Source: Escherichia coli (GTDB lineage Bacteria; Pseudomonadota; Gammaproteobacteria; Enterobacterales; Enterobacteriaceae). From it: a stretch of 59,744 bases of DNA. This document shows positions 1 to 4,311 of the stretch, one piece after another. The stretch lies in assembly GCF_003334255.1 (NCBI RefSeq), contig NZ_QOWU01000029.1, one strand, 5' to 3'. Under the pieces are notes generated by a model. The model saw only the letters and a list, made by a program, of their open reading frames with translations, was not told the origin of the DNA and did not search any database. The stretch's first letter is position 1; each line of letters opens with the position of its first letter. Made by a program: the position numbers and the translations under genes.

Positions 1-10
1 AATTAAGAGA

Positions 11-29
11 TGGTGCATCCGGGAGGATT
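11..29 (-). other. 19-nt fragment identical to the 3-prime end (T-arm half, acceptor stem, CCA) of the tRNA-Arg at 145-221; not part of a complete tRNA
   Basis: tggtgcatccgggaggatt repeats the first 19 nt of the tRNA-Arg gene as read on the + strand; the flanking sequence does not continue the tRNA. Confidence 0.6.
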
Positions 30-144
30 ACTCGCCTTGCGGCTCGCCCTTCGGGCCGTTGCTAAAGCAACGTTATCCTCCCTGGTGCCTGCGGTTATTA
101 CCGCCACCTCTTCCATACCTTCATCGCTGAAAGTACGTAGAATA

Positions 145-221
145 TGGTGCATCCGGGAGGATTCGAACCTCCGACCGCTCGGTTCGTAGCCGAGTACTCT
201 ATCCAGCTGAGCTACGGATGC
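145..221 (-). tRNA. argV: tRNA-Arg (anticodon ACG), 77 nt
   Basis: Reverse complement reads GCATCCGTAGCTCAGCTGGATAGAGTACTCGGCTACGAACCGAG...GGATGCACCA, a cloverleaf with ACG anticodon and encoded CCA. Confidence 0.93.
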
Positions 222-224
222 AAA

Positions 225-317
225 TGGCGGTGAGGCGGGGATTCGAACCCCGGATGCAGCTTTTGACCGCATACTCCCTTAGCAGGGGAGCGCCTTCAGC
301 CTCTCGGCCACCTCACC
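225..317 (-). tRNA. serV: tRNA-Ser (anticodon GCU), 93 nt with long variable arm
   Basis: Reverse complement reads GGTGAGGTGGCCGAGAGGCTGAAGGCGCTCCCCTGCTAAGGGAG...GGTTCGAATCCCCGCCTCACCGCCA. Confidence 0.93.
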
Positions 318-632
318 ACACGCCTCTTACGAGTGCTTCGAAGAACTTGTTTATCGCTCATCGTCGCTGCGTGGCGCACATATTACTTTCTGAGACTTAT
401 AAGTCAAACAATTTTTCCTACACTTTTATCGTTTGCACACTTCACGTTCAATTAGTCTGTAAAAACGTCAAAAAGAGTGTTTTATCAACAGAAGAATGGA
501 GGTCTGACAGATAGTAGTAATGCAAAAAAATGGAGACTTAAGTTGAATGAACGGGAGTAAAGCGAAAAGACTATAGAGTGAAGGAGAAATTTTGAGGGTG
601 CGTCTCACCGATAAAGATGAGACGCGGAAAGA

Positions 633-1052: not shown

Positions 1053-3683
1053 TTATTGCAATTTCGCGCTGACCCAGCCTTTCACACTGGCTAACGCTGC
1101 AGGTAAGGCCGCAGCATCCGTACCACCGGCTTGCGCCATGTCAGGACGTCCACCACCCTTGCCGCCCACCTGCTGAGCGACCATACCAATCAGTTCCCCT
1201 GCTTTCACACGATCTGTGACGTCCTTAGATACGCCTGCAATCAGAGAAACCTTACCTTCGACTACCGTTGCCAGCACGATAATTGTCGACCCCAGCTGAT
1301 TTTTTAAATCGTCAACCATGGTACGCAACATTTTCGGCTCAACACCGCTAAGCTCGCTAACCAACAGCTTAACACCATTAACATCAATTGCCTTACTGGA
1401 AAGATTTGCGCTCTCCTGTGCGGCAGCTTGTTCTTTAAGCTGTTGTAACTCTTTTTCCAGCTGACGCGTACGTTCCAGTACTGAGCGCACTTTATCAGCC
1501 AGATTATTGCTATCGCCTTTCAGCAGATGCGCGACTTCGCTTAAGCGATCGCTGTCTGCATGAACGGTGGCGATAGCACCTTCTCCGGTTACCGCTTCGA
1601 TACGACGAACGCCTGCAGCAGTACCCGATTCAGAGATGATGCGGAACAGACCAATATCACCAGTGCGGCTGGCGTGAGTACCGCCACACAACTCGGTAGA
1701 GAAATCGCCCATGCTCAGCACGCGTACGCGCTCATCATACTTCTCGCCGAACAGCGCCATCGCACCTTTCGCTTTCGCCGCTTCGAGATCCATGATGTTG
1801 GTTTCGATCGGCAAATTGCGACGAATCTGTGTGTTCACCAGGTCTTCGACCGCACGAATCTCTTCTGGTTTCATCGCTTCGTTGTGTGAGAAGTCGAAGC
1901 GCAGCACCTTGTCGTTAACCAGTGAACCTTTCTGCGATACATGAGTACCCAGAACCTGGCGCAGCGCAGCGTGCATCAGGTGCGTTGCGGAGTGATTCAG
2001 ACGAATACGGGCGCGACGAGCCTCATCAACATCAGCCTGCACCGCGTCGCCCACTTTCAGAGAACCCGCAGCAAGTTTACCGATGTGACCAATCGCCTGG
2101 CCGTATTTCTGCGTATCTTCCACCGCAAAGGAGAAGTTAGCGCCTTTCAGTTCGCCTTTATCGCCAACCTGACCGCCGGATTCCGCATAGAATGGCGTTT
2201 GATCCAGCACGACCACAGCTTCCTGGCCTGCATTGATGGCATCAACCGCTTTACCATCAACAAACAGCGCAGTCACTTTGCCGTTCAGTTCCAGATGGTC
2301 ATAGCCTTTAAATTCAGATGCACTGTCAACACGGATCATTGCGTTGTAATCGGCACCAAAGCCGCTGGCTTCGCGCGCGCGACGACGCTGCTCTTCCATT
2401 GCAGCTTCAAAACCAGCTTCGTCAACTTTGATGTTGCGCTCACGACAAACATCAGCCGTCAGGTCAACCGGGAAGCCATAGGTGTCGTACAGACGGAAAG
2501 CAGTTTCACCATCCAGCGTATCACCAGAAAGTTTTGCCAGCTCTTCATCCAGCAACGCCAGACCGCGCTCCAGAGTACGAGCAAACTGCTCTTCTTCAGT
2601 CTTCAGCACCTGCTCAACCTGCGCCTGCTGGCGTTTCAGGTCTTCACCCGCAGAGCCCATAACGTCGATCAGCGGACCAACCAGTTTGTAGAAGAAGGTT
2701 TCTTTCGCGCCGAGCATATTACCGTGACGCACTGCGCGACGAATGATACGACGCAGTACATAACCACGGTTTTCATTGGACGGCATTACGCCATCCGCGA
2801 TCAGGAACGCACAAGAACGAATGTGGTCAGCGATTACGCGCAGCGATTTATTGCTCAGATCGGTTGCGCCAGTGACTTTCGCTACCGCCTGGATCAGCGT
2901 GCGGAACAGGTCGATGTCATAGTTAGAGTTAACGTGTTGCAGCACCGCAGCAATACGCTCCAGACCCATACCGGTATCTACAGACGGCTTCGGCAGCGGT
3001 TCCATCGTGCCATCGGCCTGGCGGTTGAACTGCATGAAGACGATGTTCCAGATCTCAATGTAGCGGTCGCCGTCTTCTTCCGGGCTTCCCGGAGGGCCCC
3101 CCCAAATGTGGTCGCCGTGATCGTAGAAGATTTCGGTGCACGGGCCGCACGGACCAGTGTCACCCATCTGCCAGAAGTTGTCAGATGCGTATGGCGCACC
3201 TTTGTTATCGCCGATGCGAATAATACGTTCGCGCGGGATCCCTACTTCTTTTTCCCAGATTTCGTAGGCTTCGTCGTCGCTTTCATAGACGGTAACCCAC
3301 AGACGCTCTTTCGGCAGGGCAAACCATTTTTCGCTGGTCAGCAGTTCCCATGCAAACTGAATGGCATCGTGTTTGAAATAGTCGCCGAAGCTGAAGTTGC
3401 CCAGCATTTCGAAGAAGGTATGGTGACGCGCGGTGTAACCGACGTTTTCCAGGTCGTTGTGTTTACCACCCGCACGCACGCAGCGTTGGGAAGTGGTAGC
3501 GCGGGAATAATTACGCTTGTCGAGCCCAAGGAACACATCCTTGAACTGGTTCATCCCGGCGTTGGTAAACAACAAAGTTGGGTCGTTATGGGGTACCAGG
3601 GAGCTGCTGGCAACTACCTGATGTCCCTTACTATGGAAAAAGTCGAGAAACGCCTGACGGATCTCAGCGGTGCTCTTGCTCAT
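1053..3683 (-). CDS. alaS: Alanine--tRNA ligase, 876 aa
   Basis: ORF track; 876-aa product with class II aaRS N-terminus and editing-domain HxxxH motifs; position between csrA and recX. Confidence 0.97.
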
Positions 3684-3810
3684 AATTATCCTGAAATCAA
3701 GCTAACGAAATATCGCCACCAGCTCCAGCGTGTCTTAACCGCCGGGCTGGTAACTGAAAAGTGGGAATAAGATAAGTTTTCTTGACTGGGAAGTAAAATA
3801 CCGTATGCGT

Positions 3811-4311
3811 TCAGTCGGCAAAATTTCGCCAAATCTCCTGGATATCTTCCATCAGATAGCCACGATAGAGCAGAAAACGCTGGATCTTAACTTTTTCTGA
3901 AAAGACAGTTGGCAAAGGTTCGCCATATTTTCGCGTCGCCTGATCGCGCGCCAGTGCGCACCAGTCGATGTCACATTCACGCATCGCTTTTTCTGTCGCT
4001 TCGCGGGAAATACCTTTCTGATTCAGTTCCTGGCGAATACGCGCAGGTCCATAACCTTTGCGGCTACGGCTGGCGATAAAGCGCGCAACAAATCGGCTGT
4101 CATCGAGATAGCCATGTTCATGGCACCAGGCAATAACGCGCTCGTAATCTTCTGCCGTAGCATCAATCTCTTCTGGGCCATTTTTGCCCATAATCGGTGC
4201 CGCGAGTTTACGTCGCAGTTCTTGCTCACTGTGATCGCGCACCGCCAGAATGCGTACCGCACGATCCAACAGGCGAGCATATGCCGGGCGACGGGATGTT
4301 GATTCTGTCAT
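3811..4311 (-). CDS. recX: RecA regulator RecX, 166 aa
   Basis: ORF track; immediately downstream of recA on the same strand; sequence recognised as RecX. Confidence 0.93.

Follow-up and report, generated by a model that had tools for sequence, protein, structure and literature searches.

RtT RNA is freed from the transcripts of tRNA operons (PMC4986893) and is said, in the work of Bosl and Kersten (1991) as relayed by PMC4986893 and PMC7542023, to affect the response to amino-acid starvation. The tyrT-tyrV locus of Escherichia coli K-12 carries four RtT units (133-138 bits), each closed by AAUCCUUCCCCCACCACCA, the tail of tRNA-Tyr, and the K-12 rttR annotation, which describes the 171-nt RttR RNA, begins 7 nt past the tyrV CCA and stops exactly at the CCA of the first tail fragment. 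The DNA analyzed here, hereafter the window, is a 59,744-nt stretch of E. coli contig NZ_QOWU01000029.1 whose start falls within the serV-arg tRNA operon, adjoining csrA and alaS, all on the minus strand. An earlier sequence-only reading, made without database searches, had drawn attention to a 19-nt duplication of the tRNA-Arg 3' end at positions 11-29 of this window and offered two explanations, the footprint of an integrated element or the edge of a tandem tRNA-Arg array. The analysis reported here leads to the conclusion, to which we attach a probability of roughly 0.7, that the 19-mer forms the 3' terminus of a spacer element of the RtT family, located in the serV-argV-(argY-argZ)-argQ operon, and that this element is transcribed, folds, and imitates a tRNA-Arg helix.

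The window contains two exact copies of TGGTGCATCCGGGAGGATT, one at 11-29 and the other at 145-163. Allowing up to three mismatches returned the same two matches only, as compared to 0.03 expected from shuffled sequences, and a repeat finder extended the match to 20 nt (10-29 and 144-163) with a start-to-start distance of 134. Read on the minus strand from 29 to 11, the repeat is AAUCCUCCCGGAUGCACCA, which corresponds to A58-A76 of tRNA-Arg, beginning halfway through the T loop and extending to the terminal CCA. Its template is the last 19 nt (CCA included) of argV, an intact tRNA-Arg(ACG) gene at 145-221 on the minus strand that is called by ARAGORN and by the Rfam tRNA model (67.1 bits) and is annotated in RefSeq on identical DNA. 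The exact match bears out the earlier identification of the 19-mer as a tRNA-Arg 3' end, as well as the remark that its flank does not continue as a tRNA. Because neither ARAGORN nor the Rfam tRNA model calls a tRNA at 1-144 on the minus strand, 11-29 is a true tRNA fragment and not the 3' part of a full gene that had been misread. The spacing needs a small correction, as the copies are separated by 115 nt (30-144) and not 116, while the placement of the fragment downstream of argV in the direction of transcription stands.

The fragment closes a 134-nt element (11-144, minus strand) that opens with TATTCT directly after the argV CCA, at base 144, and whose last 19 nt are the tRNA-Arg tail. When positions 1-1100 were scanned, RF00391, the Rfam model of RtT, was aligned over its full length to 11-121 with 29.2 bits (E = 0.0025), and when 1-144 was scanned alone it was aligned full length to 11-144 with 34.7 bits (E = 1.3e-5). 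Since these scores lie below 45 bits, the curated gathering score of RF00391, the element is named RtT-like, a sub-threshold short form as opposed to a curated member. The aligned Arg stretch reads AACGUUGCUUUAGCAACGGCCCGAAGGGCGAGCCGCAAGGCGAGUAAUCC followed by the tRNA tail, and the RtT consensus reads AaCGucGCgucAGCgaCGgCCCGaAGggCGAgGcgCgaAGcGaCGAgUaAUCC followed by the tRNA-Tyr tail. No paper describing an element in the Arg operon was found in the literature searched, and the element carries no annotation in the RefSeq records inspected.

Folded alone, the 134-nt RNA has a minimum free energy (MFE) of -60.3 kcal/mol (z = -5.4 as compared to shuffled sequences), and its structure is kept in four genera. 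The MFE fold consists of two 5' hairpins followed by a long closing helix around three small hairpins, with ACCA left unpaired. In the closing helix, GCACCAGGGAGGAU (window 88-75) is paired with AUCCUCCCGGAUGC of the fragment, and the same inverted repeat was recovered by the repeat finder (15-31 with 72-88). The 5' arm (75-88, minus strand) is an imperfect inverted copy of the fragment that pairs with 15-28, as seen in the inverted repeats, the MFE fold, and an RNAalifold consensus of nine Arg-type elements (12 pairs); the fragment itself (11-29, minus strand), identified by repeat search, fold, and RNAalifold, provides the 3' strand of the helix and the ACCA tail. Enclosed by the helix on the minus strand are the core hairpins H1 (57-72, CGUUGC-UUUA-GCAACG) and H2 (46-56, GCCC-GAA-GGGC), both present in the Rfam alignment, the fold, and the family alignments, and hairpin H3 (34-43, GCC-GCAA-GGC), whose variable stem shows compensatory changes between genera at pairs 103/112 and 104/111. 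The two 5' hairpins, also on the minus strand, are GCGG-UAAUAA-CCGC, located immediately 5' of the arm (91-104, compensatory change at pair 45/52), and CGUACUUUCA-GCGA-UGAAGGUAUG (114-137, compensatory changes at pairs 13/28 and 15/26). Past the fragment, positions 1-10 on the minus strand are the start of a plain inter-tRNA spacer, UCUCUUAAUU..., which is the same as the sequence after intact tRNA-Arg genes in element-free spacers.

The pairing of arm and fragment extends to elements found behind other RNA genes, in which both strands of the closing helix differ. The 5' arm and fragment segment are GCACCAGGGAGGAT and ATCCTCCCGGATGC for tRNA-Arg, GGGGAAGGAT and ATCCTTCCCC for tRNA-Tyr, CGGGGGAAGG and CCTTCCCCCG for a tRNA-Tyr variant, CGTGCCGGATGA and TCATCCTGCACG for tRNA-Lys, CGTATAGGAT and ATCCTATACG for the tRNA-Lys of Amphritea, AGAGGATGA and TCATCCTCT for tRNA-Pro, and GGCAGTT and AACTGCC for 5S rRNA. 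In a set of 21 non-redundant long forms, the closing helix was predicted by RNAalifold without guidance, with 95% of the cells paired and changes on both sides in five of nine pairs. The covariation score of these 21 forms was 0.177 as compared to 0.093 in shuffles, none of 500 of which reached the observed value, and sliding the partners by one to three columns made both the pairing and the covariation values fall far lower. A single consensus fold, in which 12 pairs hold the fragment, accommodates the nine Arg-type elements (drawn from Escherichia, Salmonella, Enterobacter, and Kosakonia), and compensatory changes occur in three further hairpins, namely both 5' hairpins and H3.

The same layout was found in two further K-12 loci. 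Each of the five tRNA-Lys genes of the lysT operon (255-1510 of the locus extracted) is trailed by a unit ending in AUCCUGCACGACCCACCA or ATCCTGCACGACCCACCA; four of these are short forms within 133-150-nt spacers, with a layout near-identical to that of the Arg unit, and one is a long form located past the terminator. The lysT-operon elements score 47-60 bits with RF00391, above the threshold, and Lys and Pro elements of Erwinia and Pantoea score 73-95 bits. Between the T1 and T2 terminators of K-12 rrnB (~330-430 of the distal region), a 13-nt copy of the 3' end of 5S rRNA, along with a copy of its trailer, comes after the H1-H2 core. Because the copy includes the trailer, the terminator is duplicated. 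Other 5S-linked copies, from Siccibacter, Superficieibacter, Citrobacter, and Enterobacter, end in AACTGCCAGGCAT, which is the 5S tail, and those of Siccibacter and Superficieibacter carry an 18-nt inverted copy of the 5S 3' region ahead of the core. RF00391 gives 34 bits for the Siccibacter copy and no match for K-12 rrnB; like the Arg copies, the 5S-linked copies, rrnB T1-T2 included, fall under the Rfam threshold and are unannotated in the RefSeq records inspected. The rrnB T1-T2 region occurs in many cloning vectors.

To extend the comparison across species, one genome per species was scanned for the core 16-mer, with many chance matches among those listed. Core copies were found in at least ~25 Gammaproteobacteria, mostly Enterobacterales, together with Gilliamella, Zophobihabitans, Amphritea, Marinobacterium, and Photobacterium. 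Among the matches listed, ~39 of ~50 tRNA-linked copies have an exact copy of the upstream tRNA 3' end 4-27 nt past the core, with a copied tail of usually 18-19 nt and an upstream gene for tRNA-Tyr, Arg(ACG), Lys, or Pro; the remaining ~11 have no exact tail copy of at least 8 nt. At least 58 core copies from ~25 species, a subset chosen for possessing an exact copy of the upstream 3' end, lie behind tRNA-Tyr, tRNA-Arg, tRNA-Lys, tRNA-Pro, or 5S rRNA and repeat 10-19 nt of that end.

These relatives bear on the possibility that a tandem tRNA-Arg gene lost its first 58 nt by deletion or overwriting and survives only as the fragment, a neutral pseudogene kept by linkage and reshuffled by unequal crossing-over. 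Such a history would suit a tandem array of identical genes whose copy number turns over between one and five and in which partial unit deletions exist, and in the long forms the core is even preceded on its left by a piece resembling the 5' half of a T arm (for example GCAGGTTCGA), as would be expected of a tRNA 3' half split within its T loop. However, the junction falls at a constant T-loop position behind four different tRNAs, an equivalent layout stands behind 5S rRNA, and the part that is not tRNA is kept in sequence and structure across genera and loci, with compensatory changes. In the window itself, tRNA scans of 1-144 found nothing tRNA-like 5' of the fragment, where the RtT core lies instead. 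A dead tRNA gene is therefore an improbable source of the fragment.

Between strains, the operon differs by the gain or loss of units. The K-12 serV-arg operon contains three RtT-like units: argV is followed by a 134-nt unit, 64 nt of plain spacer, argY, 62 nt of plain spacer, and argZ, after which come a 135-nt unit, 63 nt, argQ, a degenerate terminal unit, and yqaB. Each K-12 arg unit opens with TATTCT right behind CCA and closes with the 19-mer. The TCTCTTA... that trails every fragment is also the sequence behind the intact genes in unit-free spacers, so the unit is a clean ~134-bp insertion or deletion with the 19-mer as its boundary. In O157:H7 the three tRNA-Arg genes have plain spacers and only the terminal unit is present, the internal units being absent; strain H2 shows yet another order of the arg array; strain 2013C_3997 has lost the terminal unit precisely between the repeats; and strain 98224 has internal deletions in its units, one of them joined at a GCACCA common to arm and fragment. 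E. coli S17-1, a K-12 derivative without argY and argZ, is 100% identical to window positions 1-330 and has an array of only serV-argV-unit-argQ. Beyond window position 1, the S17-1 sequence continues with a 63-nt spacer remainder, argQ (tRNA-Arg), and then yqaB, and judging from the identity of the shared DNA this is probably also the arrangement upstream of the window. Of the two parts of the truncated-array proposal, an array continuing upstream of position 1 is supported by S17-1 (argQ) and by K-12 (argY, argZ, and argQ), and truncation of a gene, whether at the window edge or through a deletion, is not.

BLAST of the yqaB-csrA interval, in which the repeats are a confounding factor, shows variation in copy number; in the E. 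coli records sampled (40 records, taken evenly through the ranking), the number of tRNA-Arg(ACG) genes ranges from one to five. In all eight loci inspected, seven from E. coli and one from Salmonella, the array is flanked by yqaB and csrA. The strain differences are explained by homologous recombination and slippage between the direct repeats (tRNA genes, fragments, and units), which add or remove whole units and tRNA copies, and the repeats thus explain why the tRNA-Arg(ACG) count runs from one to five among E. coli strains.

Presence and absence of the unit between strains is also a feature shared with integrated DNA, and the sequence-only reading had likened the duplication to an attachment (att) core. 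Under such a scenario the two 19-mers would be attL and attR cores left by a tyrosine-integrase phage or island in the 3' end of tRNA-Arg, with the 115 nt between them as residue. Identity blocks running from the T loop to the 3' end are typical of tRNA att sites, and formally the layout fits, since an intact tRNA is followed by inserted DNA, a copy of the tRNA from T loop to CCA, and the original downstream sequence. What does not fit is the content of the locus and its surroundings. No integrase was found between yqaB and csrA in the seven E. coli loci and one Salmonella locus, and in the seven E. coli genomes the array and the DNA next to it are free of any integrase or open reading frame (ORF) remnant, the flanks always being yqaB and csrA. 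Examination of the 1-144 interval across strains revealed no island in the loci inspected, only whole-unit gain or loss and internal deletions, and neither the eight loci nor the 40 sampled records (of 5,426 genomes) contain mobile-element genes, only tRNA genes and spacers. The intervening module is moreover common to the tyrT, lysT, and rrnB loci and to other genera, and the fragment varies with the local gene, 5S rRNA among them, a pattern for which no single att core can account.

Searches of viral sequence gave a similar picture. BLAST of 1-144 against 50,697 phage records returned four records and no real phage match: three are Salmonella enterica contigs and the fourth is a 58-nt core match in a small record titled Salmonella phage S.Kent 1-2-1. 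In 2.9 million viral contigs the 19-mer has four matches, all within complete tRNA genes. Matches of the core 16-mer in viral contigs were set aside as chance matches or as host flanks of prophage predictions (a Lys array in L158, E. coli tyrT in L160 and L165). In viral contig IMGVR_UViG_651053022_000007 (6950-7100), the 3' end of an ORF for a type I restriction R subunit is fused to a complete tRNA-Arg(ACG) flanked by plain arg-array spacer (12 nt on one side, 35 nt on the other); none of the 5,426 complete E. coli genomes has this junction, which is probably a chimera of the assembly and was not used. Four observations leave the att scar without support. The DNA between the repeats (115 nt) is a conserved, structured, non-coding homologue of RtT; the 19-mer is one strand of the closing helix of that element; other tRNAs and 5S rRNA are followed by the same arrangement, for the most part with the fragment of the local gene; and no integrase or island was found in the seven E. 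coli genomes and no phage with the element or an isolated 19-mer was found in the viral searches. We consider integration highly improbable as the origin of this repeat, a reading that is close to refuted.

The long forms of the family suggest a further way in which the elements could have arisen. In these forms the region 5' of the core contains an inverted copy of the tRNA T arm and acceptor 3' strand (for example CGTGCCGGATGAGAACCTGC), followed by a short loop and a direct copy of the T-arm 5' half, such that the core has the appearance of an insert within the T loop of a hairpin derived from the tRNA 3' end. The core is also found at places with no link to stable RNA genes. In Pseudomonas (L041, ~3560-3840, minus strand; also L042, L097, and L125), tandem intergenic units of ~76 nt fold into four hairpins that include the RtT core, in the order H0 (loop YGGAG), AACGTTGC-GCA-GCAACG, GCCCGNAGGGT, and H3, and the same core is intergenic in Stenotrophomonas (L011). 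No tRNA lies within 1.5 kb of the Pseudomonas and Stenotrophomonas units, and no Rfam family matches them at E values up to 0.5. The searched 16-mer was also seen in viral contig IMGVR_UViG_3300047160_006838, within three copies of a ~70-nt GC-rich perfect palindrome (AATAAAGGTGTCTGGAACCGTTGCCGGCAACGGCCCGAAGGGTGC...) in the intergenic DNA of a high-GC phage; the likeness of this palindrome to the RtT core may be due to chance.

The H1-H2 core could be a small non-autonomous module spread by mobility or recombination, in the manner of repetitive extragenic palindromic (REP) sequences or miniature inverted-repeat transposable elements (MITEs), which has repeatedly arrived at stable-RNA 3' ends, copies the end of its target in direct and inverted orientation, and for which RNA structure is secondary. 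The free intergenic units, in tandem in Pseudomonas, would be expected of such a module, as would its presence behind unrelated RNA genes, the long and 5S-linked forms that hold both inverted and direct copies of the upstream 3' end with the core interrupting the direct copy, and the report that RtT positions vary between Erwinia pyrifoliae strains (PMC7542023). Against this stand the lack of any transposase or other partner identified and of an empty and filled pair with a datable insertion, the polymorphism seen here being explained by recombination between existing repeats, and the compensatory changes in the hairpin stems, which are typical of selection on structure. A spreading repeat with incidental structure thus appears unlikely. 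A broader proposal, also of low probability, is that the H1-H2 core (AACGUUGC-loop-GCAACG, then GCCCGNAGGGY) is an independent module of Gammaproteobacteria that in Enterobacterales and some relatives has repeatedly been embedded in a hairpin of inverted and direct 3'-end copies of the stable RNA upstream (tRNA-Tyr, Lys, Pro, Arg, or 5S rRNA, with rrnB T1-T2 among the cases) and that forms free intergenic arrays in Pseudomonas and Stenotrophomonas. If so, either movement of the module would be accompanied by an undescribed copying of stable-RNA 3' ends, or the module would have a conserved and likewise undescribed role at the ends of stable-RNA operons, for which 3' processing, protection, termination back-up, or imitation of uncharged tRNA are candidates.

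For the RtT-like element of the Arg operon, the position of the fragment suggests how the end of a spacer RNA could be made. The element must be transcribed, because it lies between genes of one unit, with no terminator-like site in 1-700, including the interval between position 1 and a promoter-like site upstream of serV (380-407, minus strand; a consensus match only, sigma-70-like TTGACT-16-TAATAT). It would be transcribed together with the tRNAs and fold compactly, so as to form a closing helix whose 3' strand is a copy of tRNA-Arg nt 59-72, followed by ACCA, and whose 5' strand is the imperfect inverted copy. With its closing helix built from the tail copy and the arm, and with an ordinary tRNA trailer behind it, the element thus mimics at its end the tRNA-Arg acceptor/T-arm helix. 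The steps of tRNA 3' maturation, endonucleolytic cuts in the trailer and exonucleolytic trimming to CCA, would then set the end of the spacer as well and may release a discrete RNA of ~130 nt, in line with the annotation of the 171-nt RttR at tyrT; an additional RNase P cut 5' of the helix is possible. By analogy with the K-12 rttR annotation, 11-29 is the predicted mature 3' end of the spacer RNA. The sequence comparisons establish the homology of the element, its architecture and structural conservation, the agreement between fragment and upstream gene, and the polymorphism among strains, whereas accumulation of an Arg spacer RNA, the enzymes that would cut it, and any physiological role are inferred.

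Several points weigh against this interpretation. At 29-35 bits the Arg element is under the RF00391 cut-off of 45 and is not called at the gathering threshold, and it lacks the ~45-nt module of the long forms, GAGAAC-hairpin-GGUUCGAnUCGAGCG...GCGAGA, between the arm and H1. A study of lysT-operon processing found that the equivalent 133-150-nt spacers are removed by RNase P cuts and then exonucleases, and it mentions neither a stable spacer RNA nor RtT-type units (PMC4176162). The units are dispensable, being absent or internally deleted in natural strains, which fits neutral or selfish DNA as well as a functional role. The cross-species set was gathered with a fixed 16-mer, so that invariance of the motif is by construction, and its sequences are related, which inflates the shuffle statistics. 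Finally, the complementarity of arm and fragment could be a by-product of an inverted-duplication origin and not a result of selection.

Outside the element, the operon begins with serV, a tRNA-Ser(GCU) gene at 225-317 on the minus strand that is called by ARAGORN and Rfam and annotated in RefSeq. A 10-nt stretch of its long variable arm, CCCGGATGCA (249-258), is a perfect complement of 14-23 (in the fragment) and of 148-157 (in the 3' acceptor strand of tRNA-Arg), probably by chance. Other candidates were rejected. An ARAGORN call of tRNA-Arg(tcg) on the plus strand (130-201, noted over 130-221) is an antisense image of the real tRNA, and the Rfam matches 'Plastid-ycf2' and 'Plastid-psbl-rps4' are antisense images of argV and serV, none of them being genes. 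Within the element, a small ORF, AUGAAGGUAUGGAAGAGGUGGCGGUAA (MKVWKRWR), does not keep its length in the argZ and argQ copies, and a tpr-like coding role was rejected. Matches of mir-9128 and AaHKsRNA22 to 1-144 are sub-threshold, and AaHKsRNA22 contains the same core.

Taken by itself, the Arg feature is a sub-threshold short-form relative of RtT in a well-studied operon, and it is ordinary for the window. The more interesting part is the architecture of the family as a whole. The rule that a 3' fragment is taken from the upstream RNA and matched by a co-varying 5' arm, which together imitate an acceptor/T-arm helix, provides concrete handles on the RtT family, and this rule, together with the links to rrnB T1-T2 and to the Pseudomonas repeats, deserves systematic study.

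Compared with known systems, the Arg locus resembles tRNA-gene att sites in that extra DNA lies between direct repeats of the tRNA 3' end and the original downstream flank resumes past the second copy, but here the 115 nt are conserved, structured, RNA-like DNA, and no recombinase, cargo, or phage counterpart was found. A short repeat of a tRNA 3' end beside its gene therefore need not mean integration, as in the tRNA and rRNA operons of enterobacteria RtT-type spacers are marked by just such a repeat, and heuristics for finding islands should mask such spacers. The rrnB T1-T2 and other 5S-linked copies resemble the Arg element in carrying the H1-H2 core and, after it, the copied 3' end of the stable RNA upstream (AACTGCCAGGCAT for 5S rRNA), whereas their H0 and H3 differ, the upstream gene of rrnB T1-T2 is 5S rRNA, and the H2 loop is GGA in K-12. 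Like the Arg element, the RtT (RF00391) 178-bp repeats of tyrT lie directly behind a tRNA gene, on the same strand and within a tRNA operon. Both have the common core AACGUUGC...GCAACG-GCCCGAAGGGCGAG...GAGUAAUCC, with its hairpins and the junction GAGU(A/C)AUCC, and both end in the last 18-19 nt of the local tRNA, CCA included, paired with a 5' arm. The Arg element differs from the tyrT repeats in that its fragment and arm are those of tRNA-Arg and not tRNA-Tyr, in having two other 5' hairpins and no tpr-like ORF, and in being sub-threshold, so that standard annotation is silent. Nearly identical in layout and core are the units of the K-12 lysT operon, which pass the Rfam threshold partly since the model also aligns to the upstream tRNA and which carry an arm and fragment specific for tRNA-Lys (CGUGAAGGAU/AUCCUGCACG). 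As in the Arg short form, their arm GGAU is joined straight to AACGUUGC, and in the 133-150-nt spacers between tRNA genes they show the same succession of arm, GGAU, AACGUUGC, loop, GCAACG, GCCCGAAGGGCGAG, small hairpin, GAGUCAUCC, and tRNA tail.

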